From positions 5,671-69,670 of the IMG/VR virus record IMGVR_UViG_3300033052_000036: a stretch of 64,000 nucleotides of DNA, one strand, 5' to 3'. This DNA is from a virus. Of this stretch, positions 3,031 through 64,000 are shown piece after piece; within the stretch, counting starts at the first letter, position 1; every line of letters starts with the position of its first letter. Under the pieces are notes generated by a model that saw nothing but the letters and a program-made list of their open reading frames with translations, did not search any database and was not told the DNA's origin. The translations under genes were made by a program, and so were the position numbers.

Positions 3031-3247
3031 GCTGGTCGACCTCGCGCGCCGGATCCGCTCGCCTCGAACACCGCCCATCTACCACTTCTCGCCCTGGAAC
3101 GTGGAGCAGTTCGCCGAGGCGATCGCGGCCGGCGCCGGCGATCCGCTGGAGGTGGCGAACAGCCTGCCGCGCCATCAATCGGCGTGCATACCGCTAAGCA
3201 AGAAGGATGTCTTGGCCCTGCATCGGGCTCTTAGTCGCATATCTTAG
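3005..3247 (+). CDS. Hypothetical phage protein
   Basis: Continues the + strand operon and ends just before the parA promoter; start uncertain. Confidence 0.5.
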   Translation: MTAHRSRAELVDLARRIRSPRTPPIYHFSPWNVEQFAEAIAAGAGDPLEVANSLPRHQSACIPLSKKDVLALHRALSRIS

Positions 3248-14400: not shown

Positions 14401-17400
14401 ATCCGGCCCTCGCGCTGCTCGATGTCCGACGGCTTCCACGTCACGTCGGCGTGATGCAGGGCCACGAGGCGCTTCTGCACGTTGGTGCCAGCGCCCATGC
14501 GCGGGGTCGAGCCGATCAGCACGCGCACGGTGCCATCGTTGACGGCATCGAACAGCGCTTTCTTCTGGGCGTCGTTCTGCGCCTCCTGCACGAACCGGAT
14601 CTCGTCGGCGGGAATGCCGCGCGCGATCAAGTTGTCCTTGATCTGCTGGTAGGCATTCCAGCCGCCGGCCTGGGCGTTGCGCAGTTCCTCCATTTCGTTC
14701 GGATCGAAGCGCTCCATCTTCTCGCTGACACGGCGCAGCTCGGCCTCGTCGTCCTCGACCACTGCCTTACGCTGGGCCGCGAGCAGGGCGTCGTATTCCT
14801 TGAGGATCGCGTCGTCGCCCTTGCTCTTGGGGACGGAGCGATCGAGGAAAATGAGCTGGGTGCCGCGATCGGCTTCCCACTTGTCATAGACCCGCTTGAC
14901 GTTGTCGGCGATGACATCGAGCTTGCCGCCCTTCTCGTCGCTCGGGCTCGATGGCTCGGCCGCGCGCACGTCGAGCGAGACCTTGCGGGCGCGGTCCATC
15001 AGGCGCAGTCGCGCCTTGTTCCGGTCGTAGGGATCCTTGATCTCGGGCAGGCCATCGAAGCCTTGCAGCACGTCCTCCAGCAGCGCGACTTGCGCCTTCG
15101 TCGGCTGGATCACGACGGACTGGCGATCGCCGCCCTTCACGCGCGGCAGCGGGAACTCGGCGCCGTCGTTGTCCTCGGCATAGGCCTTCTTGATGTCGTC
15201 GTTGTCGACCACGTCGGTGAAGCTGTAGTAGAGGTCCATCAGCGAGCGCATGTTCGACCACGTCCGGCCCAGGCGGTTCACTTCCTTGAGGCGGCCGGTC
15301 TCGTTCGGCTCCCAGCCGGCGTCGGTGCTGACGTACTGCGCGCGCCATGCGTCGAAGTGCTCCAGGCCCAGCTCGGCCAGTTCGCCGGCGGCCAGGAAGC
15401 GCATCATGTTGTACATTTCGACCGCGCTGTTCGAGATCGGCGTGCCGGTCATAAACGTGACCGTGCCCGTCGGGGTCTCGCGCAGCACGCGCACCTTGTT
15501 ATACAGGTCGAAGGCCTTTTGCGAGCCGGTTTTGTTGCCCATGCCCTTCACGCCGGTGAGGCGCGAGCTGTAAAAGAGGTTCTTAAATTCGTGGGCCTCG
15601 TCTACGGTGAGATCGTCAATGCCCATCTGCTCGAACGTGAGCAAGCGGTCCTTGTTCTTGTCGCCTTGAACCTTCTCCATGCGCGCGGTGATGCGGTCGA
15701 CCAGACGCTCGGCCTCTTTCACGCCGAACGGCTTGCGGAAGCCTCCGCCCTCGCCGTTGGCCTCCGCTTCTTCCTGGGCGTCGATCACGGCCTGCTGCGC
15801 GGCGTCCAGTTCGATTTGCAGGTAGCGTTCTTCGGTCTCGGGCGCGATGCCGATGAAGCCGAAAGACGAATGCGGGATGATCACGATGTCGAAGTCGCCG
15901 GTGGCGATCTTGGCGAACAGCTTGCGGCGGCGTTTCTTCTCGAAGTCCGCTTTGCCGGCGGCCAGGACTTTCGCGCCCGGATACAGGCGGTACACGTCGG
16001 CCGCGAATTGTTCGACCATATGATTCGGGACGATCACGGCCGGCTTCTTCGACAGGCCCATGCGGCGGCGCTCCATGGCGCGCGCGATCGCGGTGAAGGT
16101 CTTGCCGGCGCCGACGGTGTGATCGATCAGCATGAAGCGCTCGGCGATGCCGCGCCAGATCGCATTCTTCTGGTGGCGACGCATGCTGATCACGGCGTCC
16201 GGCACTTTGCCCGGGAGGGTCAGGTGCGAGCCGTCGTGCTGGCGGGCGACGCGGGTATTGAATTTCTCGTTGAACAGGTCGACCAGCTTCTTACGGCGCT
16301 CGCCGTCCTTGAATACCCAATCGTTCCATTCGTTCCTGATCGCCTTGGCCTTGAGCAGAGCCAGGGCGGTGCGCTCGGCATCGACGTGGGTTTTCCCGTC
16401 CATGTCGCGGTACGTCACCTTGATCTGGGCGCTATTGAGCATGTCCGAGACCAGTTCGGCCGGCGAATAGCCGTCCGAGCCCCATTCCTCCATCTTCTCG
16501 CGCGTGGTCGGGCCGGCGTTGACGCTGAACGAGTTGGTCAGGGCCGAGAAGGCCACGCGCGCCGGCGAGCCAGTGACGTGCTCGACAAAGTCGGCGTACA
16601 CGGTCGGCGGGATCCAGGCCGAGCCCAGCAGGGCGGTGACGGCATCGGCGCCCCACGGTTCCGGCTGCACTTCTTCCAGGGCGGCGACGTTCTTGGGCAT
16701 GCGCGCAGCGCGGGCGGCGTTCAGCTTGCGCTTGACCTGTCCGGTCAGGTAGTTGCTGCGGGTCTCCCACTGGCCGGTTTCCGGGTCCTTGAACAGCAGC
16801 GGGCGCTCGTCGGCCTCGATCTCCTGCTCGATGTCCGCCATCGACTTGCCCAGCAGCGAAGCGATGCGCTCCAGATCCACGCGGCCGATCTCGGCCATGT
16901 TGATCGCGATCGCGTCGGCCATCGAGCCGGCCGAGGTCGGCGCCTCGTAAGGGACGATGACGCGGCCGGACAGGATCGGGGCAGGCTGGGCCGATGCCGG
17001 GCGCACCTTCTCCTTGCTGCGGGCGGCCTTGGCCGGGGTGATCGCCGGGCGGTAGCCGAATTCGAGCGCTTGCACGAGCGCGCCGTCCGGCATGCCCGAC
17101 ACGAGCGACGAGTTGGCCGGTTCCGAGATATAGCCGTGCGCCATCACAAAGGCGCCGTAGGCGCCGGCCAGAAGCGATCGGTTATCCTCGATCGCCGAGT
17201 CCGCGGCGTTCTCGCTTTCCAGTACCAACTGCTCCTTGAGGTGGTCGCGGAGCTTCACGAGCTTGGTCAGGCGCTCGTGGCGGCCGGCGCCCAGCAGCAT
17301 CGTTGCCGGGATGTCGGCCTCGTTCTCGAACACCTTGCGCTCGTACACGTTCAGCTTCGTGGGCTTGTCGCCCTTCATCTGCTTGACCGGGTTGCCCTTC

Positions 17401-20400
17401 TCGTCCAGCTTGACCTCGACGGTGTACCACTTGCCGTCGGCGCCCAGGTAGAGCGAGTCGGACCATGGCGAGGTCGGGGTCAGGGTGCGCTTGGTCAGCT
17501 CGTAGCCGCCTTCCGGGGTCTCGCGCTCGATGACCTGCTCCAGCACGTCGCCGGCTTCAAGGCGGATCGCGCCGTTCTCGTGGCCGGCCAGGGCGATGCG
17601 CAGGGAATTGCTCATGTCCTCGAAGCGGGCCTTCGAGCGATCGATCCATACCTGATCCTGGGGCGTGCCCTCGGGGAGCGTGGCGATCGCGGCCGCGAGG
17701 CGCGCGGCAAGGTTCTCGCCCTTGTCCAGTCGCACGGTGATGTCGTTCCCGTGCTTCATCGAGCCCGAGCGCTCCAGCACGCCCATGATCATTTCCGGGT
17801 GCGCGCGGAAGTAGGTGTTGACCGTCATCGGGTCGCCGCCCAGCGGATCCGGCACAGTGGTGGTTTTCACCCAATCCGGCACGAGCGCGGCGAGGCGCTG
17901 ACGCTCGAATTCCTTCTCGCGGTCCTTGAGCGGCTTGGTGCGCGCGGCCTCAAATGCCGCTTCCATTTCCTGTTCTTCGAGCGCGGAGCGGCGCTTGAGG
18001 AAAAGAATGTCGGTGACGACTTCGGTACGTGCGTTCTCCTTGAAAGCGGTGTCCGGCAGGCGGATCGCGCCGATCAGCTCAGCCTTCTTCGCCAGCATCG
18101 CGCGCGAGCTGGTGTCGACCTTGTCCATCAGGTAGCGGGAAACGACTTGGATCTGCAAACCGCCGGCGCGCAGCGCGTCGAGGGAGGCCAGGAAGAACTG
18201 GTTGTGGATCGAGTGGCCGTTCAGCTCGGGCTTGAACTGGAAGCGCAGCGATTGCTCGCCGAAGGGCGGGTTGCCGATAGCCAGGTCAAACGCGCCGTCC
18301 GGCAGCGGGACCTTCTGGAAACCACTGTGCAGCACGGTCTCCTGCGGGTAGAGCAGGGCGGCGATGCGCGCGGTCAGGCTGTCGTACTCGACGCCGATGA
18401 ACTTGGTATTGCCTTGCAGGTCGAACGGGATCAGGCCCAGGAAGTTGCCGGCGCCCATGGACGATTCCAGCGCGAGACCGCCACGGAAGCCCAGGCGGCG
18501 CGCGGCGTCCCACATGCCGCTGACGATGGTTTGCGAGGTGTAGTGCGAGTCGAGCGTCGATCGACGGGCGAGCGCGTATTCCTTCGGGGTCAGCAGGTCG
18601 CGCAGCTCGGCGCCGCGCTTGGCCCATGCGTCCTTGAACTGGCCGGTCTCCGGGCTCGGGAAGGCGCTGGCGAGGCCGCCCCAGCCCACATAGCGGGCCA
18701 TGGTGGCTTGTTCTTCGGCGGTCGCGCGGCGGTTGGCCGCCTCGACTGCCTTCATGGTGCGGATCGCGGCAAGGTTGTCGTTGAACTTCTCGACCTCGCC
18801 GCCTTGGCCGAGGCGCACGTCCTCGGTGATGCGGAAGTTGACGGCCGGGATCGCCGGCGCGGCCGGGACCGCTACTCGTGCCCCCGCATCCTCTCCTGAT
18901 ACTCGGCTTCCATTTCGGCCAGCTCGGCCTCCTGCTCGTCGTCCTCGTCCGGTGGTTCCGGCGTCAGCAGGATGTGCGCCTTCAACGCCACTTCCAGCGC
19001 TTCGTGCTCCCGATACCCGTGATGCGTCACCAGATCCGAGATCTGCGCGATCGCCAGCGCGGCCGCCGCCTGCGTCGCCTCGGTCAGCTCGCCCGCCGCT
19101 TTCAGCTCCGCCGTCTTGGCCGGTAGCCACTTCTCCCAATGCGCGCGCGCCTGCGCCGCGAGTGTTGCCTTGTCCATTGTTGTCTTTCGTGCTTGCGTTC
19201 GTGTCAAGTTTAGCGGAATTCTCCGGGCGTGCAACGCCCACGGCATCCATGATTTTGCCGGCGAGTTCCTGGGCGCTCAGCGTCGGCTCCAGCCAGAGGT
19301 TTTCACTGCCGCCGTAGGGGTCGCCCAGGCCGGTTGTGCGCATCATCAGCGTGATTCCGGCCGGCGACGCGGCGCGGCGCGTGCCTTCGGCGCCGATCTT
19401 GACGTAGATCCCGCGCCCGGCGGCCGGGCTCGACATCATCAGCGAGACATCGCCCGACACGCCCGGGCCGGCCGGGTTCGCGCTGACTGCCTTCTTGAGC
19501 TGCTTGCCGGCGCGGTCGCGCGCGGTCTCGAAGCCGGCTTCTTCCAGCGTGGCGGCCACTGCCTTGAGATACTTCTGCACGTCCTTGAGGAATGCGTCTT
19601 TCACGCCGCCCTCGATGTCGTCGCCCGGGTTGCCCGGGAATTCGGTGGTCTGGGCGTAGCCGTCGATCGCGTCGACGCCGTAATCGAGGCGCAGGGTCGG
19701 ATTGGCCGGCGCCTTGGCCTTCTTCGGCGCCGGCGCGGCCTCGGCCGGCTTCGGGTTGGCGGCCGCTTGCGCATCCTGGTCCTTCCAGTAGGCGGCGATC
19801 TTGCCCCGGAACTCCCGGCCCATGTTCTCCCACGTCGAAAACTTGGCCTGCGCGGCCTCGTCCTGATTCACGCCGGTGCCGGCGCGGTAGAGCACGCTTT
19901 CGCGCTCGTTGAACGGCATCGCCGTCCAGCGTTCGCCGGCGGCCTCGTCGGCGAGCTGCTCGGCGGTCTTTTCCGGCGCGGCCGGCATCCAGGCGCGGTT
20001 GACGCGCTGGCCCTTGGTGTTGGTGTACCACGCGCCCGTGAAATGGTCCTCGTTGAGCGCGGCGTGCATGAGGCGGCGCTCGTCGGGCGTCATTTCCTCC
20101 CAGGCCTTCCCGACGATCGGATCGTCGCTGGCGCGCTGGACGCGGCCCATGATGGCGCGCTTGAAGCCCGCGCTCGACCGCTTCCATTCTTCGGCCGCTT
20201 CCTTGGCGGTGTAGGTCTTGAGGTCGCCGGCCGGGATCCACGCGGCGCGCTCGCGCTGCGGCGCAAGCGGATCGTTGGCGTCGGCTTCCTGCTTCGCAAA
20301 GAGCTGGGCGGCCTCGCGCACGTTGTCGCGCGCCCAGGTGGCCCGGGCCTTGATGTTGGCCGGCTTGCCGTCTTTCAGGCGGAACGAACCCATGGAATCG

Positions 20401-20996
20401 TCGCCGACATATACGGTGAACTCGTCGCGGCGCGCGGTCTCGATCACGCGCGCCGACTCGCCGGACTTCAACGTGTATTCGCCGCGGCGCGCGGTCTCGC
20501 TCGTGACTTCGTCGCTCGCGTTGGCCTTGGCCTGCTGCAAGCGGTAGCGCGGCTCCTTCTCGGTCCCGATGTTTTCCACCACATTTTCCGCGATCAGCTT
20601 GGAGAGCAGGCTTTCTACGGCGGCTTCCTCTACGGTCGTGCCGGGCTTGTCCGGGTTTCCGATGATCCCGGCGATCCTTGACAGGGTTAGCGTGCCGCCG
20701 TAGTTCTGCGGATCGAGCGTAAATAGGACCTTGTCGTGCAGGTATTGCTCGGTCAGCAGGGACGGGACGGCAGGGGCCTTCTTCGGGCCGCCCTGGGCTT
20801 CCCATGCGGAGCGCACGGCCTTGATGATGCTGCGCTCCTCCATTTCGGCGAGCTGGATGCGATCGCGCACGGCGCGGATCATGGCGGCCTCGTGCGACAT
20901 GCCGCCTTTTTCGTACTGCGCCGCGACATCGCGGATCTCCTGGGTAGGGAGTTGGCCGGTCAGCCCGAGATCGAGCATGCAGGAGTTAAAGGACAA
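8478..20996 (-). CDS. Giant DarB-like polyvalent protein (4172 aa): N6-adenine MTase, SNF2/SF2 helicase, JAB/RadC, ADP-ribosyltransferase-like and PLxRFG C-terminal region
   Basis: LESSMGAGNF (~18441-18470), GNPPF (~18261-18275), DHTVGAGKT (~16100), DEAH (15591-15602), QREGRIIRQG (~14400), HNHPSGDPSPSIED (~12700), IVYHGS..WFSTNP..VYLSIQNP (~11750-11945), GYAPLSRFG (~10503-10529). Confidence 0.92.
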   Translation of the reverse strand: MSFNSCMLDLGLTGQLPTQEIRDVAAQYEKGGMSHEAAMIRAVRDRIQLAEMEERSIIKAVRSAWEAQGGPKKAPAVPSLLTEQYLHDKVLFTLDPQNYGGTLTLSRIAGIIGNPDKPGTTVEEAAVESLLSKLIAENVVENIGTEKEPRYRLQQAKANASDEVTSETARRGEYTLKSGESARVIETARRDEFTVYVGDDSMGSFRLKDGKPANIKARATWARDNVREAAQLFAKQEADANDPLAPQRERAAWIPAGDLKTYTAKEAAEEWKRSSAGFKRAIMGRVQRASDDPIVGKAWEEMTPDERRLMHAALNEDHFTGAWYTNTKGQRVNRAWMPAAPEKTAEQLADEAAGERWTAMPFNERESVLYRAGTGVNQDEAAQAKFSTWENMGREFRGKIAAYWKDQDAQAAANPKPAEAAPAPKKAKAPANPTLRLDYGVDAIDGYAQTTEFPGNPGDDIEGGVKDAFLKDVQKYLKAVAATLEEAGFETARDRAGKQLKKAVSANPAGPGVSGDVSLMMSSPAAGRGIYVKIGAEGTRRAASPAGITLMMRTTGLGDPYGGSENLWLEPTLSAQELAGKIMDAVGVARPENSAKLDTNASTKDNNGQGNTRGAGARALGEVATGQDGGAESGGRADRGDAGGGRAGDRADLGSGDASRVSGARSAGSGVEGAHPADAGTTGRGRRAGGRAGRNGSRVSGEDAGARVAVPAAPAIPAVNFRITEDVRLGQGGEVEKFNDNLAAIRTMKAVEAANRRATAEEQATMARYVGWGGLASAFPSPETGQFKDAWAKRGAELRDLLTPKEYALARRSTLDSHYTSQTIVSGMWDAARRLGFRGGLALESSMGAGNFLGLIPFDLQGNTKFIGVEYDSLTARIAALLYPQETVLHSGFQKVPLPDGAFDLAIGNPPFGEQSLRFQFKPELNGHSIHNQFFLASLDALRAGGLQIQVVSRYLMDKVDTSSRAMLAKKAELIGAIRLPDTAFKENARTEVVTDILFLKRRSALEEQEMEAAFEAARTKPLKDREKEFERQRLAALVPDWVKTTTVPDPLGGDPMTVNTYFRAHPEMIMGVLERSGSMKHGNDITVRLDKGENLAARLAAAIATLPEGTPQDQVWIDRSKARFEDMSNSLRIALAGHENGAIRLEAGDVLEQVIERETPEGGYELTKRTLTPTSPWSDSLYLGADGKWYTVEVKLDEKGNPVKQMKGDKPTKLNVYERKVFENEADIPATMLLGAGRHERLTKLVKLRDHLKEQLVLESENAADSAIEDNRSLLAGAYGAFVMAHGYISEPANSSLVSGMPDGALVQALEFGYRPAITPAKAARSKEKVRPASAQPAPILSGRVIVPYEAPTSAGSMADAIAINMAEIGRVDLERIASLLGKSMADIEQEIEADERPLLFKDPETGQWETRSNYLTGQVKRKLNAARAARMPKNVAALEEVQPEPWGADAVTALLGSAWIPPTVYADFVEHVTGSPARVAFSALTNSFSVNAGPTTREKMEEWGSDGYSPAELVSDMLNSAQIKVTYRDMDGKTHVDAERTALALLKAKAIRNEWNDWVFKDGERRKKLVDLFNEKFNTRVARQHDGSHLTLPGKVPDAVISMRRHQKNAIWRGIAERFMLIDHTVGAGKTFTAIARAMERRRMGLSKKPAVIVPNHMVEQFAADVYRLYPGAKVLAAGKADFEKKRRRKLFAKIATGDFDIVIIPHSSFGFIGIAPETEERYLQIELDAAQQAVIDAQEEAEANGEGGGFRKPFGVKEAERLVDRITARMEKVQGDKNKDRLLTFEQMGIDDLTVDEAHEFKNLFYSSRLTGVKGMGNKTGSQKAFDLYNKVRVLRETPTGTVTFMTGTPISNSAVEMYNMMRFLAAGELAELGLEHFDAWRAQYVSTDAGWEPNETGRLKEVNRLGRTWSNMRSLMDLYYSFTDVVDNDDIKKAYAEDNDGAEFPLPRVKGGDRQSVVIQPTKAQVALLEDVLQGFDGLPEIKDPYDRNKARLRLMDRARKVSLDVRAAEPSSPSDEKGGKLDVIADNVKRVYDKWEADRGTQLIFLDRSVPKSKGDDAILKEYDALLAAQRKAVVEDDEAELRRVSEKMERFDPNEMEELRNAQAGGWNAYQQIKDNLIARGIPADEIRFVQEAQNDAQKKALFDAVNDGTVRVLIGSTPRMGAGTNVQKRLVALHHADVTWKPSDIEQREGRIIRQGNSLLDKYGIGNFEVEILAYATERTIDAKMWSLNASKLKTINAIRKYDGAFSMDFEDEDSVSMAELAALASGDPLLLERVQLMSEIDKLELLKRQHSRREWGITSQIEDAERDIERLPLRIAAAQEDHAAAVAGAEEMEASRFGRTVTVEGTTYTDGEAARKAVVEAYKAQGGEDEGAKISISVGKRRLTSLDGALGAVSSAMGDEQTFSMFVNGAEYIARTDAAREIAELAKDKSVGLEKGEAVTVDLGTFRGLKLSATFERFDSGGYQTSLAVLRPDGTTMASGETKWREKWDYSTSAMRSAVEDLDRVMNPDSFQYRAEDMKRRLARAHEILPDLRARKGGGFPQQDELEAKNKRLEEVIRLLSEGPATPARSIALRVNPLRNVDGSYRRQAPALNVMQPEQGYGYNDPYENVQSRPGTNEAQREAGRAAVDDLSRRVGAHHLRERGDGNSGARGTVLGSRLLANFVAGKPNQLIGQVAATPRDLAALAQVYRDPRFETFRIFYMKGDKIVGEAGYTSRLPSAAAIPSGWEGSVKQDMARFGADGYYILHNHPSGDPSPSIEDQDMTVRFSQAIPGLRAHVVIDHDRYATIDQAGTYGVISAPWLNGVDFTDQPEREHKLLDTLVTDPAGVAGIGKALQIPQGHASLVMLDSKSSVQLLVDVPMGALTDMSPLGILKIKALVRRMARETGSGGLRFIVLPDGVDTTQFAPLIEQAVFKDVVSADGKSARELGVPELENDYLRGAHRIHDVRESGSTYRGAERRATDRTIEIDGARRPITNSKGKTIADDFMKQLAFYRWFKDSKVTDEQGRPLIVYHGSIVRDSERAPGMGDIQQFDRLFTTKFRAHSVDTMGNWFSTNPGEGGAQMYAGRGQGSVIYPVYLSIQNPHETTFRLLQRRARLLANGEDDGRKLGQAEVDAYRKWLKDMGKDGIKIVHDEYDETGSTEFRDQTAWITLEPEQIKSATGNGGGFDPGSPLIVGSREGAYTVGGIAGALAGAANSAANVRLPAGYMVGDLFNQSGKVSWWHKTIGTMDNLARRAPLFAPVYEAVQKFLGDVSRYAVLAADKAPTLLPHLDSIKDILGKNRKKPLTAADTKAIAAPIFEGTLIWARDAHGNPVKIQQLEEEAERLTIEQKAEILLQKGVITDEQNIAWLASPLDFYDATIERRFTESQLKPGVVWTNAELRSMFDLSDAQIAMYREFRAATDASLTNLSLSEMVKLGGKDSAGMLEQAVEAGGLMAGAELLRDHFIELAQSDPDKETMHLDTASRIMDVADRAQDLMDRGYAPLSRFGKHTVYVQQANEDGEMEQVYFGMFETQFEASRMARQMREGHPGAQVLQGTVSDEAYKLFAGVSPETIELFGSMVGLDTQADAKSTEVYQTYLKLARSNRSAMKRMIHRKGIAGFNEDAGRVLANFIYSNARLTAGNANLGKIDEAITAIPKQEGELTDAAMELRAHIRDPQGGGHMLGGLMFAQFLGGSVASALVNMTQPFTMTLPFLSQWGGIGKAGARLAGAIRDAGKEQTGDAALDAALKWATEEGIVAPQEVHYLQAQAAGKGALQSGDGTKVGDARATLNNAIAKVSLGWGKLFAMAELANRRVTFIAAYRTAVEQGMADPARFAQEAVTQTQGTYNSGNKPRWARSTIGGLALTFKQYSIAYVELLTRMLNAGEPGSPERAAGRRAALYMIAVLFLMGGADGLPFEQDLEDLIDGILQRLGYNFSTKREKQEFLTEVLGEGGADFALKGISSLPGMPVDVSGRFGMGNLIPATGLLTKKESYTRDIGELAGPAGDLATRAFKATGKALGGDIDGAALEMSPVAIRNAAKGLEMGSSGAYLDARGYKVNDVSATEAGMKILGFQPNSTADIQDAKGQALNMISQTRMRSQEIAEHWAQGIASNKPEMVAEARAWRDDWNSKNPETRINVNMAAVLRRVKSMRQDALRRTSMTAPKALKQSVRAELSETRD
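12947..13153 (-). CDS. Candidate nested 68-aa gene in an alternative frame of the giant gene, possibly leaderless
   Basis: TATAAT (13166-13161) lies exactly 7 nt before the ATG. The host frame here is a low-complexity R/G linker; the nested frame reads STIFPDGSGHIIYANGVTAILE. Confidence 0.45.
   Translation of the reverse strand: MKTSNPDPAPTRLSEKPAVLRSTIFPDGSGHIIYANGVTAILEREAPYLVADCSPTSSPASPTSSSGK
18872..19177 (-). CDS. Nested 101-aa gene (TnpV-like by pattern) in an alternative frame of the giant gene
   Basis: MDKATLAAQARAHWEKWLPAKTAELKAAGEL...EALEVALKAHILLTPEP reads as an ordered helical protein, while the host frame is a G/R/A-rich disordered linker. Confidence 0.7.
   Translation of the reverse strand: MDKATLAAQARAHWEKWLPAKTAELKAAGELTEATQAAAALAIAQISDLVTHHGYREHEALEVALKAHILLTPEPPDEDDEQEAELAEMEAEYQERMRGHE
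19207..19234 (-). promoter_or_regulatory. Candidate internal sigma70 promoter for the nested 101-aa gene
   Basis: TTGCAC (19234-19229), 16-bp spacer, TAAACT (19212-19207), 30 nt upstream of ATG 19177. Confidence 0.45.
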
Positions 20997-21791: not shown

Positions 21792-23159
21792 TTATGCCGC
21801 GTTCTTGTAGCTGCGCTCTTTTTCCGACACAAGCGCGAACACTTGGCCGGTGGCCCGACTGATCGTGCCGCGCGCCATGACGAATTTCGCGCCGTTGGTG
21901 CCGCTGGCGATGACGACAACGGCCGCATCGCCACCGGGCGCGCGGCCGCCCTGGGCGTTGCTGTCGTAGGCGAACGTGAACGGAATAGCAGCGCGGCCGC
22001 TGATCAGGCCGGCGATCGGATTGCCGGCGGCGTCGTTGACGGTCACGGCCGTGCCGGTGCCGTAGTTCTGCGAGCCCGGCAGGGTCTCGAACATCATGCG
22101 GTAGGTCGCGGTGCCGTCGGCTTGCAGGTTGGCGTTCGGGGCGATCGTGCCGGCCGCGACGAAGGGCTCGGTGCGCGGCGTGCCGTTCTGGTCGGTGAAG
22201 CGGATCCCGTTGGTGTCGTTCGGGTCATAGTTCTCGATGTAGACGCCGCGCGCGGTCACGAGGGTGTCGCCGTCGAAGGACAGGAGCGCGTCGGCCGTCT
22301 TGCCGGTCACGGTGCCGGCGCCGGCGTCGATGTCGGCGTTCTGGCGCAGCAAGTGCTGGATCCGGGTGTAGATCTGGCCCTTGGTGGCGCCGTTGCCGTT
22401 GATGACGATGCGGAACGGGTACGGCGTGCCGCCGATCGACTTGTTCTGGTCGGCGCCGAAGTAGGTCACGGTGATGCCGCTGTAGGGCGCTCCGGCCATG
22501 GCGCCGTCGGCGGCCACGATCTTGCCGTCGATCGCGGCCGAGACCGCGAACGTCATCTTGCGGGGGCCGGTGTTGGTCTCGGCGATCACGCCCAGGTCGG
22601 ACTGACTGTAGCTCTTGCCGGCCGTGCGCGCGAACACCTTGAAGTAGGCGCGCTCATCGAAATTGCCGTTCGCCGCGTCGCCGAAGATCTGCACGCCTTC
22701 GTTGACGGGACCCAGATAGACGAAGTTGCGGGCGACGCCGCCGGCGGCGCGCTGGTAGTAGAGCTGGTCGGCCGGGTCGATCGTGCCCAGGGTGACGATG
22801 CCGACGTACTGGCGCAGCAGCGCACCCTGGGCGCCGGGCGCCGCGGCTGCGTATTCTTCCCAGCCGCCGTCGCGGTGCAGGTTGCGGGTTGCGTCGTCGG
22901 CCGGCTTCCAGCCCGAGAAGTTCGCGCCGTCGGTGCCGAGCTGGTACTTGCCCGCCTCGGCGTCGATCGCGTACATGGGGAACGGGTGGAGCTGGTAGGG
23001 CATGGTCAGCCACAACTCCTTGAGCTTGGAGTAGATGGCTTGCAGGGTCACGCCGTCCGCGCTCAGGTTGCCGGCGAGGTTGAGGGTGTAGGTGCGCGCG
23101 GTGAGGTCCAGGGTGATCTCAGTACCTACGCGCAGGAGATCTGGGTCGGTGATTTTCAT
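21792..23159 (-). CDS. Putative virion structural protein (455 aa, beta-rich)
   Basis: Long ORF with host-like codon bias and RBS AGGAG; C-terminal ERSYKN motif. Confidence 0.75.
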   Translation of the reverse strand: MKITDPDLLRVGTEITLDLTARTYTLNLAGNLSADGVTLQAIYSKLKELWLTMPYQLHPFPMYAIDAEAGKYQLGTDGANFSGWKPADDATRNLHRDGGWEEYAAAAPGAQGALLRQYVGIVTLGTIDPADQLYYQRAAGGVARNFVYLGPVNEGVQIFGDAANGNFDERAYFKVFARTAGKSYSQSDLGVIAETNTGPRKMTFAVSAAIDGKIVAADGAMAGAPYSGITVTYFGADQNKSIGGTPYPFRIVINGNGATKGQIYTRIQHLLRQNADIDAGAGTVTGKTADALLSFDGDTLVTARGVYIENYDPNDTNGIRFTDQNGTPRTEPFVAAGTIAPNANLQADGTATYRMMFETLPGSQNYGTGTAVTVNDAAGNPIAGLISGRAAIPFTFAYDSNAQGGRAPGGDAAVVVIASGTNGAKFVMARGTISRATGQVFALVSEKERSYKNAA

Positions 23160-54708: not shown

Positions 54709-56973
54709 TTATCCCTCGATCTGAGGGGTCTCGATGCCGGCCAGTGCGCCGGCGGTTGCGCCGACTTCCCCGCCGATGGGGTCGCGGCCGGCTGCTGGAT
54801 CCGCCGGCATCGGGGGAACCTGGGCGCCCGGATCCGCCGGCGCGGCCGCTCCGGGGGTGGGCTCGGCCGGGGTCCGGTCAACGAAGCCGGCCGACTTGAG
54901 GATCGCATCGCCCGCCGGCGCGACTTCCGGCCGCGCGGTGGCGACGCCGCCCGCCTGCATGCCGGCATAGGCCGCGTCGACGTTGGTTTTCGTGGCGATC
55001 GCTTGGAGGCGCAGGACATCGGCGTTGAGCTTGGCGACTTCGCCGGCCAGCTTCTCCACTTGGAGCTGCGCGGTCTTGAGCTGCAATTCCTGCATCTGCT
55101 GGGCCAGCGCGGCCTGGGCCTTCGCTGCCTCGTTGTTCTGCTCCGCCTTGACCTCGTCCTCGGTCTTGATGATGCTGGTCAGGTCGTGGGCCTGGGCACG
55201 CTGGCGCAACAGTTCTTCGCGCTTGATGTAAGGCGCGTCCTCGGGGGAGATCGTCGCGGCGAACTGGTCGAGCTGCTGGGCGCGCACTTCTTTCGCCATC
55301 AGGGAGGCGGTGCCGCGCGCCTTGATGTCGAAGTCACCCTTGATCGAGTTGTCCGGGTTGAAAGCCATGTTCCACTTGTACAGCGCGTCGATGAAGGTCC
55401 GCGTCACCTCGTCGTAGTTGGTGAGCAGGTCCTTCATCACGATCGAGGCGTTCGCCAGCAGCATCGACATGCCCGACGCGGTGCCCGCTGCGCCGCCGGT
55501 GGCGTTCTGCCCCTGCATGTAGCGCGGGATCGCGGTCACGTCGTCCGAATTTCGCTGGAACATTTCAACGATCGGCATCAGGTATTCGAGGCCGTTCGGG
55601 ATGTTGATCACGCGGATCGCCGGCTGGGAGTTGTCCTCGCCGTTGCGCTTCCAGATCTTGAAGGGGTACATGTCGTCCGCCTTCTCGCTCGGAGACAGGA
55701 GGCGCATGTTCACTTCGAGCTGCGGGCCGGCGGTCAGCGCGCCGTTGTCCAGAACCATGCGCGTTGCCGCGTTGATCATGGTCTGGTCGTCGCGCATGAT
55801 CGAGGCGAAGCCGTCGCCGAAGATGCTGGTCTCGTCCTTGTCGGCGTAGTACAGGTGATACGGGTAGGTGACGCCGTTGATCGGTTGCAGCGAGAGCTTG
55901 ATGATCTCGCCGTTCGGGAGCAGCCATACATTCGCGAAGAATGTCTCGTGCAGACGGTCCTCGGGCACGTTCACGAGGCCGGTCTGGGCCAGCTTCTCGC
56001 CGTCCAGCCATCCCCAGCGCTCGATGACTTCGTATTTACCGTCCTTGTCGCGGTTGGTGGCGACGCGCTCGCCGATCTGGCGGATCTCGCTCTGGAACTG
56101 CGTGCGGCGCATGCGGGCGCCGTCCGGGTTGGCCTGGATGTAGTCGCGGATCTTCTGGCCGGCGAACTTGCGGCGCTGGGCCAGGGCGGCAAACTGGTGG
56201 CGCGGCATTTCGTGCAGCTCGTACACGTAGGCGCAGTCGGCCAGCGTGGTCGCCGACATGTCCGGGTAGAACCGCCAGAGGGGCACGTATTCGAGGAACG
56301 GGACGACGTAGCTCTCGACCACGCTGATCCACTTGCCGTTTTGCAGCACGAACTTGGTGCGGGTCTTGCGCTCCACGAGAGGCGCCTTGAGCACGCCGGT
56401 GCCGTACAGGTGGCCGGAATGCAGCACGTCGCGCGCCACTTCCTTGTAGCGGGCCTCGGCGAGCTGGTCATCCATCACGGCCGTCATGCGATCGGCCGCC
56501 TGCTGGACAAACTTCTTCACGGCCGCATCGATCTCGCGGCGCTCGGGCGCCCGGCCGATCTCCTGGGCGAGCTGCACGGTCAGCATGCGCTTGGTCTCGC
56601 GGTCGACCGACGGGACAGCGGTGGGCTCGGCCGTCCAGTTGCGATCGGAGGTCGACGGGAAAAGCAGGTCCGCCACGCGCGCATCGACCGTCTTGACCTT
56701 CACGCGGGTAGCGCGGACGAAGGCGCGGGAGCGGTTCGCGCCGATCTTGGCCTCGATCTCCGGGTCGTAGATGCCCCGGTACTGGCGCAGATCCTTGAGC
56801 CAGCGCTGTTCGGTCTCTTGTCGATCGAGCATGGCCTGCTCGAACTGCGCGATCAGCACGGGGCCGAGCGCGGCCATGGCGGCGGACTGGTAGGCGGCGT
56901 TATCGTCGCGGTTCATGCCTGCCTCGGCCGCTACGATGTATTCCTGCTGGTCTTTGTCTACTACTTCTGTCAT
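54709..56973 (-). CDS. Portal protein
   Basis: RWLKDLRQYRG, SRAFVRATRVKV, LYGTGVLK, TASGMSML, DFDIKARGT; position after terL. Confidence 0.9.
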   Translation of the reverse strand: MTEVVDKDQQEYIVAAEAGMNRDDNAAYQSAAMAALGPVLIAQFEQAMLDRQETEQRWLKDLRQYRGIYDPEIEAKIGANRSRAFVRATRVKVKTVDARVADLLFPSTSDRNWTAEPTAVPSVDRETKRMLTVQLAQEIGRAPERREIDAAVKKFVQQAADRMTAVMDDQLAEARYKEVARDVLHSGHLYGTGVLKAPLVERKTRTKFVLQNGKWISVVESYVVPFLEYVPLWRFYPDMSATTLADCAYVYELHEMPRHQFAALAQRRKFAGQKIRDYIQANPDGARMRRTQFQSEIRQIGERVATNRDKDGKYEVIERWGWLDGEKLAQTGLVNVPEDRLHETFFANVWLLPNGEIIKLSLQPINGVTYPYHLYYADKDETSIFGDGFASIMRDDQTMINAATRMVLDNGALTAGPQLEVNMRLLSPSEKADDMYPFKIWKRNGEDNSQPAIRVINIPNGLEYLMPIVEMFQRNSDDVTAIPRYMQGQNATGGAAGTASGMSMLLANASIVMKDLLTNYDEVTRTFIDALYKWNMAFNPDNSIKGDFDIKARGTASLMAKEVRAQQLDQFAATISPEDAPYIKREELLRQRAQAHDLTSIIKTEDEVKAEQNNEAAKAQAALAQQMQELQLKTAQLQVEKLAGEVAKLNADVLRLQAIATKTNVDAAYAGMQAGGVATARPEVAPAGDAILKSAGFVDRTPAEPTPGAAAPADPGAQVPPMPADPAAGRDPIGGEVGATAGALAGIETPQIEG

Positions 56974-56985
56974 GGGCACGCCCGT

Positions 56986-57295: not shown

Positions 57296-58840
57296 TCAAT
57301 AACCTGCGCTCGATGCGGCGCCGGCGTGTTCGTTGCCACCGTAGTGGCGGGAATCGTCCTCGCGCTGCGATCGGGGGATCACGGGCTCGGCGAACGTCAT
57401 GGCCAGCGCGTCGGCGCCGTCCGGGGAGCGCATGCCGCGCTTCTTCATGTCCTCTTTCGACTCGATCAAGCGCGAGCCGTTGGATTTCGTCTTGTAGCTG
57501 GGCGCCGACAGGTCCGAGATCAGGGCCGCATCGCGCGGGAGGCGGTTCGGCGCGTCCTCGATCCATTCCTTCATGCGATACCAGATCTCGGCGCGCTTGT
57601 TGGCGTAGCGCTCGGCATCCTCGGCCCGGGCGGCGCTGTTCACACCGATGACGGGCACGCCCAGCTCCTTGAGCCGGTCCACGATGCCGGCGCCGATGCC
57701 GATCTTGTCGACAAAGATGCCGTCCGGCTTCAACTCATTCCAGTAGCCGGCCAGGATGCCGGCCACTTCCATCGGGCCTTTCTTCTCGTGGTACTCGATG
57801 CGGAAGCACGTCCGGCCGTGGCGGAAGGCGATCGAGGTGCGGTCTGGGCCGTATTCGGCTGGGTCGCAGCCGATGACGAAGGATCCCGTGCGCTCGCGGT
57901 AGTCGCTGTTCACGGCCGCCATGACGGACGTTGGATTGATCAGCGGGTCGGCGGTCGCGGAGTGGAAGGCCAGGGCCGGCGTTGCCGGGTATTCCTGATC
58001 GAACAGCCACTCGAAGCCTTGGCCGTAGCTGACGATCTTGTTGAATCGCCATGCCATCTGCTCCATGTCCAGCCCGTAGGCGTCCATGTAAGCGGCGTCC
58101 TCTTTCGAGAGCTGGAAGCCCTCGGGCACGCGCGTGCGGTATTCGTCCTGCCAGTACCACGGCACGAAGATGGCGATGTACTCGCCGATCCCGGCCTCGG
58201 CGTCCTGCCACATGGAGTGGAAGGCGCCCGAAGTGCCGTTCGCGGTCGACTCGATGATGATCTCAGTGCCATCATTGTTGCCGACGGTGTTGCCCAGGCC
58301 CGCCATGTGGCTCTGCGCGTTCGCCCAGAAAGCGAACTCCGAAGCGTGCAAGAGCTGGGCCGTGTTCGAGCGGCCGACATCCTTGCTGCCGGCGGTCGCC
58401 AGCTTGTAGCCGCCGTCCAGCTCGCCGAACACCAGCTCTTGCGCGTTCGAGGCCTTGGTCGACGGCGCGAGCGGGTTGTTCTCGTGATACCTCTTTACCA
58501 TCGTAAAGAGGTTGTTCGTCGCTTTCTGCTCGTGCGCGACGATGAAGGCGCCCAAGCCCTCGTTGATCGAGGTTTTCGCGTAGAAGCGGGCGCCGATGTA
58601 GGTCGAGGCGCCTTGCTGGCGGCCCTTGAGGATGATCGCGCGGACCTTGCCGGTCTTGGCGAGCTGTTCCTCTAGTCGCGCATGGATGTAGTGCTGGGCC
58701 TTGTTCCAGATAAACGGGATCCGGCGGCCGGCCTTGTCCTTGATGAACATGCACGTTTCATGGTGCAGCTCCAGGTCCTCGCGCAGCGCCGCTATGGTTT
58801 CTTCTAGCTCGGCCTGGGAGTCCTCAAGATTGCGCCGCAT
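57296..58840 (-). CDS. terL: Terminase large subunit
   Basis: ILKGRQQGAST Walker A region, LLHASEFAFW, IIESTANG, nuclease GCDPAEYGPD, SPDGADALAMTF. Confidence 0.93.
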   Translation of the reverse strand: MRRNLEDSQAELEETIAALREDLELHHETCMFIKDKAGRRIPFIWNKAQHYIHARLEEQLAKTGKVRAIILKGRQQGASTYIGARFYAKTSINEGLGAFIVAHEQKATNNLFTMVKRYHENNPLAPSTKASNAQELVFGELDGGYKLATAGSKDVGRSNTAQLLHASEFAFWANAQSHMAGLGNTVGNNDGTEIIIESTANGTSGAFHSMWQDAEAGIGEYIAIFVPWYWQDEYRTRVPEGFQLSKEDAAYMDAYGLDMEQMAWRFNKIVSYGQGFEWLFDQEYPATPALAFHSATADPLINPTSVMAAVNSDYRERTGSFVIGCDPAEYGPDRTSIAFRHGRTCFRIEYHEKKGPMEVAGILAGYWNELKPDGIFVDKIGIGAGIVDRLKELGVPVIGVNSAARAEDAERYANKRAEIWYRMKEWIEDAPNRLPRDAALISDLSAPSYKTKSNGSRLIESKEDMKKRGMRSPDGADALAMTFAEPVIPRSQREDDSRHYGGNEHAGAASSAGY

Positions 58841-59459
58841 GCTTGGCCTTCACGCGCTTGATCACTTCATCGACGGCGCTGCCGCCCTTGTTCTCGTTCT
58901 CGTCCACACCGAAGGCCTCGCGCTCCAGGCTGACCAATACCTTGAGGGAATCGGCGAGCGTTTTCATCGTGCTCGACCTGCTGCCCAGCGAGATCACCTT
59001 GCGGATCAGCTCGTCGCGCTTGTCGACGCCGTTCTCGTTCGGGGCGTAGACCGCCTCGCGGAGCTGTTCGACTAGGTCGAGGTGGTCGGTCTGGGCCTCC
59101 AGCTCGTTGAGCAGGCGCATGGTGAGGCGGCGCGAGCGCTGGATGTCTTGCCGATGGGCAAGGATGATGTCGGACTGGAGTGTTGCATTCGCTTCAACGA
59201 GTTCGCGTTCGTAAGCGGCGGTTTGTATACTTACCGGCTTGCTAACCGCAGCCGCGCTAACCTTCGCAGCCGCTTTCTCGCGGATCTTGGCGCCCAAGTC
59301 ACGGGTCCAGCCTTCTTTCTTCGCGCGCTTGAGGATGCCGGCGTCCGATACCCCGTACTTAGCGCCGATCGCCCGTAGAGCGAGGATGCCCGCACGGTAA
59401 TCGACCTCTACCAGATCCCAGGCTACAGGTGCCTTCTCAGTCTTGGTGTCCTCTGCCAT
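58824..59459 (-). CDS. terS: Terminase small subunit
   Basis: N-terminal HTH (DYRAG..LRAIGAKYGVSDAGILKRAKKEGW); directly upstream of terL. Confidence 0.8.
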   Translation of the reverse strand: MAEDTKTEKAPVAWDLVEVDYRAGILALRAIGAKYGVSDAGILKRAKKEGWTRDLGAKIREKAAAKVSAAAVSKPVSIQTAAYERELVEANATLQSDIILAHRQDIQRSRRLTMRLLNELEAQTDHLDLVEQLREAVYAPNENGVDKRDELIRKVISLGSRSSTMKTLADSLKVLVSLEREAFGVDENENKGGSAVDEVIKRVKAKHAAQS

Positions 59460-61871: not shown

Positions 61872-62165
61872 TCATGCGCCTGCAGGCGCGGGCGCAAGGA
61901 GCTGGTATCGGTAGAGGCCATTGCTGACGTATTCCTTGTTGACGGTGTAGCTGCCGAAACGCTCCTTCCGTAGATGGCGGAGCTGGGCGCTGACACTTGC
62001 CTCGGGCGCTGCGCAGGCCTTGGCGATCTCGCCCAGGGTGCGCCACGCGCCGTCGATCATCAGGTCGCGGATCGTCCTCATCTGCTCGGACAGCCGCGCA
62101 TCATCGCGCTCGGGGATGTAGTCGGGTCCGTTGAAATGGGTCATCGCGCGCCTTTCGGTATTCAT
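61872..62165 (-). CDS. Winged-helix DNA-binding protein
   Basis: DGAWRTLGEIA..EASVSAQLRHLRKERFG..GLYRYQL. Confidence 0.75.
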   Translation of the reverse strand: MNTERRAMTHFNGPDYIPERDDARLSEQMRTIRDLMIDGAWRTLGEIAKACAAPEASVSAQLRHLRKERFGSYTVNKEYVSNGLYRYQLLAPAPAGA

Positions 62166-62362: not shown

Positions 62363-62839
62363 TCAGCGGTGAAGGGTTGCGTCGATCTCGATGCGGAGAC
62401 CGACAAGGTGTAGGGCCTCGCCCTCATACAAGCGGCTCGGGGTGAACTCGTAGACAACTTTCCGGCGCTCGTCCAGCACGCGGACATAGATCTCGTCGCC
62501 CTGGCCGCGATAGATATGGATCTGGTGGCCGGTCAGGGTCACGGGATAGCGGTCCCCGTGCGCCGGCGCCGGCGGGGTTCCCGGCGTCACGATCGGCTCG
62601 GGCAGGCCCAGGGCCGGCCAGCCGGTCGCGAACAGGTCAATGTAGGTCGAGGTGAAGATCCGGTGGATGCCATTGCCGACGACGAAGGCGGCGAAGATCG
62701 CGAAGATGGCGTAGCCCCAAGGCGCGGCGCCGAGGCGGTCCATCAGCAGCCAGATCGTGCCCAGCAGGGCAAGGCCCAGGCCGCCCGGGAGATTCTGGTA
62801 GGAGATCACGCGCTTCGGGATTTTGGTCGGCTTCTTCAT
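62363..62839 (-). CDS. Membrane protein with two TM helices and a soluble C-terminal domain
   Basis: AGGA RBS; LGLALLGTIWLLM and WGYAIFAIFAAFVVG. Confidence 0.7.
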   Translation of the reverse strand: MKKPTKIPKRVISYQNLPGGLGLALLGTIWLLMDRLGAAPWGYAIFAIFAAFVVGNGIHRIFTSTYIDLFATGWPALGLPEPIVTPGTPPAPAHGDRYPVTLTGHQIHIYRGQGDEIYVRVLDERRKVVYEFTPSRLYEGEALHLVGLRIEIDATLHR

Positions 62840-62855
62840 GGTCGGTCCTGAAATG

Positions 62856-62882
62856 AAAAAGCCCCGCACGAGGCGAGGCTTT
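62856..62882 (-). terminator. Intrinsic terminator closing the tRNA/ncRNA locus
   Basis: AGCCTCGC-ctcg-TGCGGGGCT-TTTT on the minus strand. Confidence 0.7.
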
Positions 62883-63059
62883 GTGAAATGGTGGCCCGAA
62901 GTTTTTACAGAACCTCGGCTAAACTGGCTGTCTTTCCATGCTGTCCACCTCATTGCCCATACGGCCTATCAAATCTCGCGCACAGAGGTTGCGACCTATG
63001 CCTTGCGTATGGCTGCCCGGGTATAGCCGCCGTTTCCCGGGATAGTGCTTCTTGCGGCC

Positions 63060-63109
63060 ACTCCTACGCTTTCGCGTTTCGCCCGGATCTCACGGGCTCG
63101 TCAGGGAGT
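63060..63109 (-). ncRNA. Type I hammerhead ribozyme
   Basis: Minus strand: ACUCC-CUGACGA-GCCCG(ugagauc)CGGGC-GAA-ACGC(gaaa)GCGU-A-GGAGU. All core nucleotides and three perfect stems are present; GUA cleavage triplet. Confidence 0.9.
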
Positions 63110-63116
63110 TATGGAT

Positions 63117-63188
63117 TGTGGTGGCCGGTGCTGATCTCCGACATGGTCACGTTGCAGACGCTGCGCTCAGCGGGCGCTTTCCACCACA
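63117..63188 (-). ncRNA. Candidate multibranch RNA with loop-loop pseudoknot
   Basis: 8-bp closing stem UGUGGUGG/CCACCACA; hairpin loops contain complementary GCUGA and UCAGC. Confidence 0.5.
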
Positions 63189-63516
63189 CAGCGCGACTCG
63201 TTCCCTTGAAAATACCGTGTTGAAGAAAGGATTTTCACGAACCGCGCTGTCTGGTGCCTGCTAGATTTGTTGATCGCGGCCGTGCGCACAAAGCAGCGCT
63301 TGCCATTCTCTTGATAAGGTACGGTCAACTACTTCCCAACTACCCTGCGGCGCTAAACCCGCAGTCCGTCCGCGATCAACAAGACAGGGCGGTCCCTCTC
63401 TTGTTGCGACTGGCGCGCGCCAATCGTCGGCGAACCCGCCAGCTCGTGTGTGGAACACCCGGCCGGCGGATCTCGTGGCGCCCAGACCTATCTGGAAAGT
63501 GGCGCCCGGTATTGCT

Positions 63517-63593
63517 TGGCGGGGGAAGCAGGGATCGAACCTGCGCATGCCGGAGTCAAATTCCGGTGCCTTAACCAACTTGGCGACTCCCCT
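63517..63593 (-). tRNA. tRNA-Gln (anticodon UUG), CCA encoded
   Basis: AGGGGAG/TTCCCCC acceptor with 1-72 mismatch, GCC-AAGTTGGTTAA-GGC D arm, CCGGA-ATTTGAC-TCCGG anticodon arm, GCAGG-TTCGATC-CCTGC T arm. Confidence 0.95.
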
Positions 63594-63710
63594 CCTTTCG
63601 CTAGACCCACTTTTGCAATCTATCGAATTGAGGCGAATTTTACGGGCAAGTGTGCACGTTTTCCCAGGACTAAAATGCGCAAGTTTTCTTGCACACTGAA
63701 AACATTCTAT

Positions 63711-63764
63711 AAATCAACGACTTAGCAAATCCACATGTGGGTTTGCAAAATCCACATGTGGATT
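63711..63764. promoter_or_regulatory. IHF box followed by two tandem palindromes
   Basis: AATCAACGACTTA (IHF consensus), GCAAATCCACATGTGGGTTTGC (63725-63746) and perfect AATCCACATGTGGATT (63749-63764). Confidence 0.75.
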
Positions 63765-63813
63765 GCAAACCTGCTTACCGTGCTAACGCCTGGGCATTCC
63801 CTCACTTTTTTTG

Positions 63814-63849
63814 ATACTTGAATAACTCAAGCATGATTAATTCAAGTAT
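63814..63849. repeat. Inverted repeat, 10-bp arms with 16-bp spacer (candidate operator)
   Basis: ATACTTGAAT...ATTCAAGTAT upstream of the divergent ORF at 63902. Confidence 0.65.
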
Positions 63850-63901
63850 TATGTTGGCTAGTAGCATGAGTGCAATGCCGCCTCGACAATGAGGGGGAGT
63901 G

Positions 63902-64000
63902 ATGAACCAACTAAGCGAAGGGACCGACGTGACACCACGAGTCAGTCAGGAAATGAGGAATGCCCAAGCGCTGCTCTGGGCTGGCAAGACCGGCTATGCA
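63902..64000 (+). CDS. 5' end of a divergent gene, truncated by the window edge
   Basis: GAGGGGGAG RBS, then MNQLSEGTDVTPRVSQEMRNAQALLWAGKTGYA, open to the window end. Confidence 0.5.
   Translation, partial: MNQLSEGTDVTPRVSQEMRNAQALLWAGKTGYA

Follow-up and report, generated by a model that had tools for sequence, protein, structure and literature searches.

RiboJ is a synthetic insulator that places a hammerhead and a 23-nucleotide (nt) hairpin in a 5′ untranslated region. In nature, phage hammerheads flank genes, process polycistronic RNA and, both in vitro and in E. coli, cut long transcripts (Perreault et al. 2011, PMC3088659). Theta ribozymes, which are hepatitis delta virus (HDV)-like, adjoin transfer RNA (tRNA) genes in gut phages (PMC10879173), and in lambdoid phages the late leaders that end at a terminator are produced constitutively and can serve as functional small RNAs (PR′-tR′, lambda 6S RNA, StxS; PMC7547250). 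Here, we describe a 738-nt stretch of viral DNA (minus strand, positions 62856-63593) in which a tRNA-Gln gene, a type I hammerhead ribozyme, a conserved 118-nt RNA and an intrinsic terminator follow one another ahead of an operon. The window analysed, to which all coordinates refer, is 64,000 nt long and comprises positions 5,671 to 69,670 of the 80,082-base pair (bp) IMG/VR virus record IMGVR_UViG_3300033052_000036. We favour, with a probability of roughly 0.5, the reading that the stretch is the 5′ leader of the late operon and that RNA cassettes use it as a landing pad, with the ribozyme cassette acting as an insulator.

Probable leader of a late operon

The initial annotation read the stretch as a free-standing, multi-module non-coding RNA operon bounded by a tRNA and a terminator. 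Both ends are borne out: the tRNA-Gln is found by two programs, ARAGORN and Rfam (RF00005, 52.3 bits against a cut-off of 29), and a terminator scan recovers the intrinsic terminator. The proposed Rfam scan returned the tRNA as the sole match over the whole window at the gathering cut-off, and relaxing the search to E values up to 10 added nothing credible, the weak RsmY, microRNA and small nucleolar RNA matches being noise. The tRNA was also the sole match when the 738 nt were compared with phage records by blastn.

That no credible open reading frame (ORF) separates tRNA and terminator was confirmed by third-position G+C content (GC3) and by the closest relative, L002, a 79.8-kb contig whose small terminase subunit is 89% identical. 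No GC3 periodicity exists across 62840-63950, compared with values of 0.85-0.97 in the flanking genes. ORFs within the stretch have a GC3 of 0.51-0.63, versus 0.80-0.87 in real neighbours, and indels disrupt their frames in L002. Small plus-strand ORFs were dropped on the ground that their frames are broken in L002. A frame of 13 amino acids (aa; start codon 62960) was rejected as well: as read from alignments, its length is the same in L002 while its end diverges, and beyond 62947 it is replaced in X10, a contig from another public run.

The stretch is a late-operon leader rather than a free-standing RNA operon because the terminator directly precedes the Shine-Dalgarno site of the gene that opens the terminase/portal/capsid operon. 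Only ∼6 nt separate the U run from this ribosome site, so late transcription must cross both leader and terminator. The terminator thus stands between the promoter segment and the first late gene, and the gap from its U run to the ribosome site is too short to hold another promoter, a layout kept in all five leaders compared below. The genes upstream, past ∼63950, are oriented oppositely; a 1.1-kb divergent control region therefore heads the packaging and structural operon. The ribosome site AGGAC is likewise kept in all five leaders and aligns 6-9 nt 5′ of the start codon in four of them.

An RNA operon that ends at the terminator, with the late genes expressed from elsewhere, would account for the ORF-free run from the promoter-like segment, for a spacer that folds better than its shuffles and for a terminator that is strong and widely used. 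Nonetheless, it is improbable: the gap between U run and ribosome site leaves a late promoter no place, and some relatives keep promoter, terminator and gene without tRNA and hammerhead, so that the transcript exists minus its supposed cargo. In addition, its spacer modules are swapped or deleted among close relatives.

Two cassettes in an ancestral leader

Five leaders could be compared: that of the window, L002, L183 and L184 (small terminase subunits 81% identical in both), and L190, reached through a 97-aa ORF of the late operon. All five contain the promoter segment, the terminator and the ribosome site, and the promoter segment (63596-63696) is 77-90% identical in the four relatives. The 5′ hairpin HP1 is absent from L190 and nearly invariant in the other four, with changes in its loop and bulge alone and no covariation. 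The tRNA-Gln and the hammerhead with its adjoining block occur in the window and in L002, and are missing from L183, L184 and L190. All four public runs compared were contigs, which cannot show RNA ends, strand or expression; contigs of other runs gave three partial sources, X2, X10 and X11. X2 and X10 carry both the tRNA-Gln and the hammerhead block, such that the two elements are both present or both absent in seven of seven sources.

Relatives also reveal where the cassettes entered. Positions 63117-63145, just 5′ of the hammerhead, are homologous to the segment directly before the terminator in L183 and L190, so the hammerhead cassette was inserted immediately before the terminator. Between the two inserts lies ancestral leader, namely HP1, a hairpin with a UUUAGC loop and the segment before the hammerhead; tRNA and hammerhead were therefore inserted separately, and travel together. 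The motif GGCCACCA recurs near both cassette junctions (63126-63119 and 62896-62889), which is only a hint.

The spacer is the most variable part. Its GUUUAGCG-loop hairpin is kept in the window, L002, L183 and L184, where the stems covary (CUGCGG/CCGCAG, AUGCGG/CCGCAU, GCGCGG/CCGCGU and ACGUGG/CCGCGU), and L190 has a variant with a GUUAGCG loop. A 13-bp long-range helix occurs in this phage only. Spacer positions 63117-63340 are specific to this phage, apart from the counterpart of 63117-63145 in L183 and L190 noted above; L002 lacks ∼200 nt of the spacer (63150-63340). In X2, the 406 nt between hammerhead block and tRNA are replaced by 357 unrelated letters. Segments of the leader are thus present, absent or replaced independently among relatives, which contradicts the notion of one multi-module RNA.

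The claim that nearly every segment folds holds in part. The spacer between tRNA and hammerhead (63110-63516) folds better than chance (z = -3.58; as stable in none of 100 shuffles) and the whole 661 nt does so weakly (z = -1.99, 20 shuffles), but the hammerhead plus block (z = -0.39) and the 209 nt 3′ of the cut (z = -0.26) are at chance. All stems quoted in support of that claim are found in the sequence, but pairing GAUUGGCG with CGCCAGUC would leave a 2-nt loop, and the actual hairpin has 7 bp and a GCGC loop.

Another structured RNA may be exchangeable among these leaders. A ∼95-nt module with motifs GUAUCGACUGCC, GGACGGUCCCCUGC and GACGGGGC lies just 5′ of the terminator in L002 (2580-2675), L183 (∼4860-4950) and L190 (∼3130-3225), that is, in leaders with and without a hammerhead. 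In L002 this adds 95 nt after the block, and the distance from block to terminator is 65 nt in the window and ∼160 nt in L002. The hairpin at 62896-62918 lies in a stretch that is replaced in X10.

The terminator is kept in L002, L183, L184 and L190, with changes in its loop and one G-U to G-C change. Its 24-mer GCCTCGCCTCGTGCGGGGCTTTTT is letter-identical in 65 IMG/VR contigs (including loci L116-L179) and in at least 10 unrelated contexts, usually between a stop codon and the next gene. This suggests a generic, widely shared terminator, a module that is either horizontally shared or strongly convergent.

The hammerhead ribozyme

The predicted hammerhead was upheld as a complete type I ribozyme in which stems II and III are closed and stem I is open. 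Every catalytic core position is in place (C3-U4-G5-A6-N7-G8-A9, G12-A13-A14, A15.1-U16.1 and an N-U-H cleavage site), and the core is the same in 26 related copies. The Rfam gathering thresholds were not reached by either model, at 13.8 bits against 34 for RF00163 (Hammerhead_1) and 29.6 against 48.5 for RF00008 (Hammerhead_3). A type III topology, as implied by the Hammerhead_3 match, was rejected: its stem III is mismatched and its 5′ arm is missing in L002.

Related copies were gathered by the pattern of core and stem II, so the invariance of stem II follows from the search itself. The matches comprise 18 viral contigs, 12 metagenome contigs (partly the same sequences) and 2 genome bins, amounting to 26 distinct copies; the genome studied here holds a single one. 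Stems I and III form, with differing sequences, in 24 of the 26. When 19 aligned copies were folded with RNAalifold, the three-helix type I fold was recovered with 7 of 15 pairs altered on both sides. Stems I and III are paired in 98.7% and 98.9%, respectively, and their covariation score is 0.406 compared with 0.093 in shuffles (reached in 0 of 500), dropping to 0.03-0.10 once the partners are slid. By its core and its covarying stems, then, the hammerhead is a genuine one of a known kind that the curated Rfam models miss.

A search of viral contigs with the small terminase subunit, from which 80 loci were kept, found the leader only in L004, a contig identical with L002. Neither a homologous leader nor a hammerhead occurs in remoter relatives of the terminase (L185-L189) or in those of the 97-aa ORF (L191-L193). 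None of ten loci related by their small terminase subunit, several of them enterobacterial prophages, has a hammerhead at the Rfam cut-off, and none was found in the tRNA arrays of the N4-like (Schitoviridae) phages HN03 and PB119. A link of the Drum RNA motif to hammerheads was not borne out by PMC5737381.

Most other copies of the subfamily sit elsewhere. The ribozyme is wedged between two genes, the first of which ends in UAA or UGA immediately 5′ of stem I, as at L085:5565-5627, L086:1910-1972, L089:3732-3793, L094:6081-6143 and L099:1509-1571. At these intercistronic sites the 3′ strand of stem I, GGAG(G), is the Shine-Dalgarno site, and an ATG follows 6-10 nt later. Cleavage there would free an mRNA that starts exactly at a ribosome binding site sequestered in stem I until then. 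A 73-kb viral contig carries three hammerheads of the same subfamily within 1.1 kb, each intergenic (L003:8897-10022), resembling the multi-hammerhead arrangements of Perreault et al. 2011.

The conserved 118-nt block

Downstream of the predicted cleavage site, a 118-nt block continues the conservation of the ribozyme. Hammerhead and block together form the best conserved stretch of the neighbourhood, at ∼89% identity in L002 and 96-99% in three runs, while the next protein is 40% identical between window and L002. X2 matches 62946-63108 with 1 difference and the tRNA region with 14, X10 matches 62947-63110 with 7 differences, and X11 matches 62947-63060 with 2. Conservation stops at 62946/62947 in all three alike, and in X10 the letters 62881-62947 are replaced by 92 others. 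As judged from these alignments, the conserved unit is 62947-63110, hammerhead plus 118 nt, with sharp borders and changed flanks.

One might dismiss such a leader as recombination debris, a mosaic of non-functional scars in which the hammerhead is a relic copied from the intercistronic site of another phage. The content of the leader is indeed mosaic, and the same hammerhead subfamily occurs between genes in many other phages. Yet the core is intact, its stems are held by compensatory change between window and L002, and the block is far better conserved than the adjoining coding sequence, all of which makes debris a very improbable account.

Against L002, the block offers 119 possible helices of at least 4 bp; the 21 differences touch 70 of these, and 2 show an unbroken compensatory double change. 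One is 63061-63054/63030-23, whose core is S1 (G-C to A-U), and the other is S2 (G-C to C-G). S1 and S2 would together form an H-type pseudoknot starting 6 nt past the cleavage site. When the substitutions were re-dealt, P was 0.27 for helices of 4 bp or more, 0.03 for 5 bp or more and 0.01 for 6 bp or more. With two compensatory changes in one relative, the pseudoknot is weakly supported and no more than suggestive. The other differences in L002 and X10 sit in predicted loops or linkers, one closing pair excepted, and both the helix CCAUACG/CGUAUGG and the internal hairpin are invariant. A possible helix S4 ends exactly at the border, 62947, and would form a second pseudoknot.

The block has no Rfam family match, and blastn with hammerhead plus block found nothing among 50,697 phage records and among 5,426 E. 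coli genomes. L002 was the sole match of a 26-mer taken from the block. Complementarity between the block and the rest of the phage genome is at chance level.

These borders bear on a further explanation, namely that hammerhead and block are an autonomous, horizontally exchanged RNA gene acting in trans (regulatory, decoy or anti-defence), for which the ribozyme merely sets the 5′ end and the late leader is a tolerated site. Conservation breaks off sharply at 63108/63110 and 62946/62947 in three samples whose flanks differ on one side or the other, three otherwise collinear relatives lack the cassette, its sequence is highly conserved relative to neighbouring genes, and a terminator with a U run follows 65-160 nt further on. 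Against this, complementarity to targets within the phage genome does not exceed chance, such an RNA would have no defined 3′ end, as the stretch from block to terminator varies among relatives, and copies come from one family of close relatives, with none among the phage and E. coli genomes searched by blastn. On balance we regard this explanation as unlikely. Another reading, which we hold tentatively and as somewhat doubtful, is that the hammerhead and its 118-nt knotted RNA make up a discrete mobile phage RNA gene of an unnamed class, which inserts into late-operon leaders and clusters of tRNAs and is functionally linked to the tRNA genes of phages. Its 5′-OH end would be set by the ribozyme, and the RNA may protect or mark this end against host RNases or RNA-targeting defences, or act in trans.

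A highly conserved structured block 5′ of an intrinsic terminator that heads an operon also recalls a riboswitch-like or attenuator leader, in which the block would sense a ligand or factor and control the terminator. However, the linker between block and terminator is variable and non-homologous (65 nt here, ∼160 nt in L002, 92 other letters in X10), which leaves no conserved switching helix, and the hairpin arm able to pair with the terminator is not retained in L002. The terminator also appears to function in block-free relatives and across many unrelated contexts, and riboswitch families in Rfam are unmatched. Of the explanations considered here, this is the least probable.

A proposed insulating cassette

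The favoured reading, a late leader that accepts RNA cassettes, starts from an ancestral leader in which a regulated promoter and a conserved 5′ hairpin would have been followed by a variable stretch rich in hairpins, with a terminator directly before the ribosome site of the first gene. Two cassettes would have been inserted apart, the tRNA-Gln just past the transcription start and the hammerhead with its 118-nt RNA just before the terminator. The upstream promoter would give a single precursor transcript, from which host RNase P and 3′ processing enzymes would free the tRNA. The hammerhead would then cut co-transcriptionally between 63065 and 63064, leaving a tRNA-bearing 5′ part that ends in a 2′,3′-cyclic phosphate and a downstream RNA that starts with a 5′-OH in a compact, probably pseudoknotted fold. 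This downstream RNA may stop at the terminator (∼205 nt) or run on as late mRNA through partial or factor-dependent antitermination. As an insulator, the cassette would give the downstream RNA a defined, protected 5′ end irrespective of tRNA maturation and of the variable leader upstream. The initial annotation had likewise proposed RNase P processing at one end and self-cleavage within; this part appears reasonable, since a tRNA, itself a candidate RNase P substrate, shares its strand with a consensus hammerhead and no terminator intervenes, but the single RNA unit to which it was attached does not hold.

Several points weigh against this reading. A protective or insulating role of the block is pure inference on our part: its thermodynamic stability is ordinary (z = -0.39), the pseudoknot loses significance once helices down to 4 bp are included (P = 0.27), and other hammerheads of the subfamily occur without such a block, which is therefore not required for the ribozyme as such. 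A scan for the sigma-70 consensus gave no promoter, and the start and the co-transcription of tRNA and hammerhead are therefore assumed. A Q-type antiterminator (PF06530, PF03589) is absent from the 80-kb genome in a search that covered Q-type families only. Among the runs listed as containing the stretch, none is on record as RNA. Finally, the co-occurrence of tRNA and hammerhead comes from a small sample of seven related, non-independent sources.

Features of the locus and its neighbourhood

The positions of all elements are collected in Table 1.

Table 1. Elements of the leader and of the late operon behind it, in window coordinates
Feature	Position	Strand	Remarks
Conserved promoter and 5′-leader segment	63596..63696	-	three TGCRCA-type boxes, motifs TTCGATAGATT and TGGGTCTAGCG; putative promoter and start
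tRNA-Gln (UUG)	63517-63593	-	encoded CCA, A1-C72 mismatch, G73; accessory insert
Hairpin HP1	63478-63508	-	GCGC / ACUUY bulge / CCAG, loop AUAGGN, CUGG / GCGC
Spacer, variable, rich in hairpins	63110..63477	-	z = -3.58 (63110-63516)
Spacer stem CAACAAGA/UCUUGUUG	63377-63406	-	
Spacer hairpin, loop GUUUAGCG (UUUAGC loop)	63345-63364	-	
Type I hammerhead	63060..63109	-	complete; stems II and III closed, I open
Hammerhead stem I	63109-63105 (ACUCC) with 63064-63060 (GGAGU)	-	5 bp
Hammerhead core CUGACGA	63104-63098	-	
Hammerhead stem II	63097-63081	-	GCCCG/CGGGC
Hammerhead GAAA	63080-63077	-	
Hammerhead stem III	63076-63067	-	CGC-GAAA-GCG
Predicted cut	between 63065 and 63064	-	after GUA (63067-63065); predicted from sequence
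118-nt RNA block	62947..63064	-	5′ end at the predicted cleavage site
Block helix S1 (proposed)	63058-63054 with 63030-63026	-	
Block helix S2 (proposed)	63041-63036 with 63021-63016	-	H-type pseudoknot with S1
Block helix S3 (proposed)	63012-63006 with 62963-62957	-	
Block internal hairpin (proposed)	63000-62995 with 62986-62981	-	
Block helix S4 (possible)	62989-62985 with 62951-62947	-	ACCUC with GAGGU, crossing; a reading of the letters only
Hairpin CCGAGG/CUUCGG	62896..62918	-	loop UUCUGUAAAAA; L002 has the same 11-nt loop, two compensatory pairs and one mismatch
Intrinsic terminator	62853..62882 (hairpin and U run 62858-62882)	-	10-bp GC-rich stem followed by UUUUUCAUUUC; terminator scan
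Shine-Dalgarno AGGA of first late gene	62849-62846	-	∼6 nt after the U run; ATG at 62839
First late-operon gene	62363..62839	-	158 aa, no family match; GC3 0.87
Small terminase subunit	58824-59459	-	
Large terminase subunit	57296-58840	-	
Portal gene, SU10-type	54709-56979	-	

Five small minus-strand genes without family matches lie between the leader and the small terminase subunit. A homologue search with the first late protein returned only the protein itself, and a search of viral contigs for loci encoding its relatives was empty. The 97-aa ORF (61872-62165, minus strand) has more than 675 relatives in a large family of small proteins, a few of them auto-annotated as DNA-binding regulators or antiterminators, which makes it a candidate regulator of the operon. 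Farther away, an ORF of 4172 aa (8478-20996, minus strand) matches DarB-like antirestriction, methyltransferase and helicase families (PHROGs); the idea that this giant protein is an N4-type virion RNA polymerase was dropped, as its family matches are DarB-like instead. RtcB was not found in the genome. At 22116-22208, ARAGORN calls a 93-nt tRNA-Thr(CGU) that Rfam does not report at the gathering cut-off; the call may be spurious or the tRNA unusual.

At 63727-63768 and 63815-63849, the divergent control region contains a tandem pair of 21-nt units with the palindrome CCACATGTGG and an inverted repeat, ATACTTGAAT...ATTCAAGTAT, that flanks CTTGAGTTATTCAAG and is kept in L002 and L183. Both the tandem units and the inverted repeat look like operators.

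Eight runs (X2-X9) from two studies, all labelled with one organism, each contain ∼11% of the sampled words; those of X2 fall in the hammerhead with its block and in the tRNA, on one 2.9-kb contig of low depth. A related phage or prophage present in samples of that one named organism could point to a host.

Comparison with known systems

The locus lends itself to natural comparison: among collinear phages, the late leaders share promoter, terminator and first-gene ribosome site, and carry either both inserts or neither. Phage hammerheads have been known since 2011. Three hypotheses become testable here: the ribozyme may shield a message from a tRNA upstream of it, a 5′-OH knotted RNA may stabilise late mRNA, or the cassette may be an RNA gene of its own. 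Beyond the locus, curated Rfam hammerhead models miss a subfamily present in at least 18 viral contigs, 12 metagenome contigs (overlapping in part) and 2 genome bins.

Like the phage type I hammerheads of clan CL00010 (RF00163), the ribozyme combines CUGANGA, GAAA, a GUH triplet and three stems in phage intergenic RNA, but it scores below the RF00163 gathering cut-off and its stem I has just 5 bp. Whereas most copies of its own subfamily stand right before a start codon, this hammerhead is fused to a 118-nt RNA within a non-coding leader behind a tRNA. The initial annotation had likened the stretch to GOLLD and ROOL (for ROOL, PMC5737381). Phage context, a nearby tRNA and the absence of an ORF are indeed shared, but the likeness goes no further: neither family is matched in Rfam even at E values up to 10, the spacer modules are not kept as a set, and in place of a conserved large architecture there are segments gained, lost and replaced independently. 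Theta ribozymes offer another parallel, in that a phage tRNA gene is accompanied by a small self-cleaving ribozyme; they are of another class, and here the hammerhead lies ∼410 nt downstream of the tRNA with ancestral leader in between.

In its overall layout, the locus is like the lambdoid PR′-tR′ leaders, in which a promoter, a non-coding leader and an intrinsic terminator precede the late genes, the leader may carry tRNAs and the terminated product may be a stable RNA. The late leader of the Shiga-toxin phage 933W, for example, also carries tRNA genes. Unlike in the lambdoid case, a Q-type antiterminator was sought without success and the leader is far longer, and a self-cleaving ribozyme is no part of the lambda paradigm; the phage itself is unrelated, with an 80-kb genome, an SU10-type portal and giant DarB-like virion proteins. 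The proposed function finds a close analogue in RiboJ, in that the hammerhead would remove a variable upstream leader and leave a structured 5′-OH end on the message. In contrast to RiboJ, this putative insulator is natural, and the element downstream of its ribozyme is a conserved RNA of 118 nt rather than a 23-nt hairpin.

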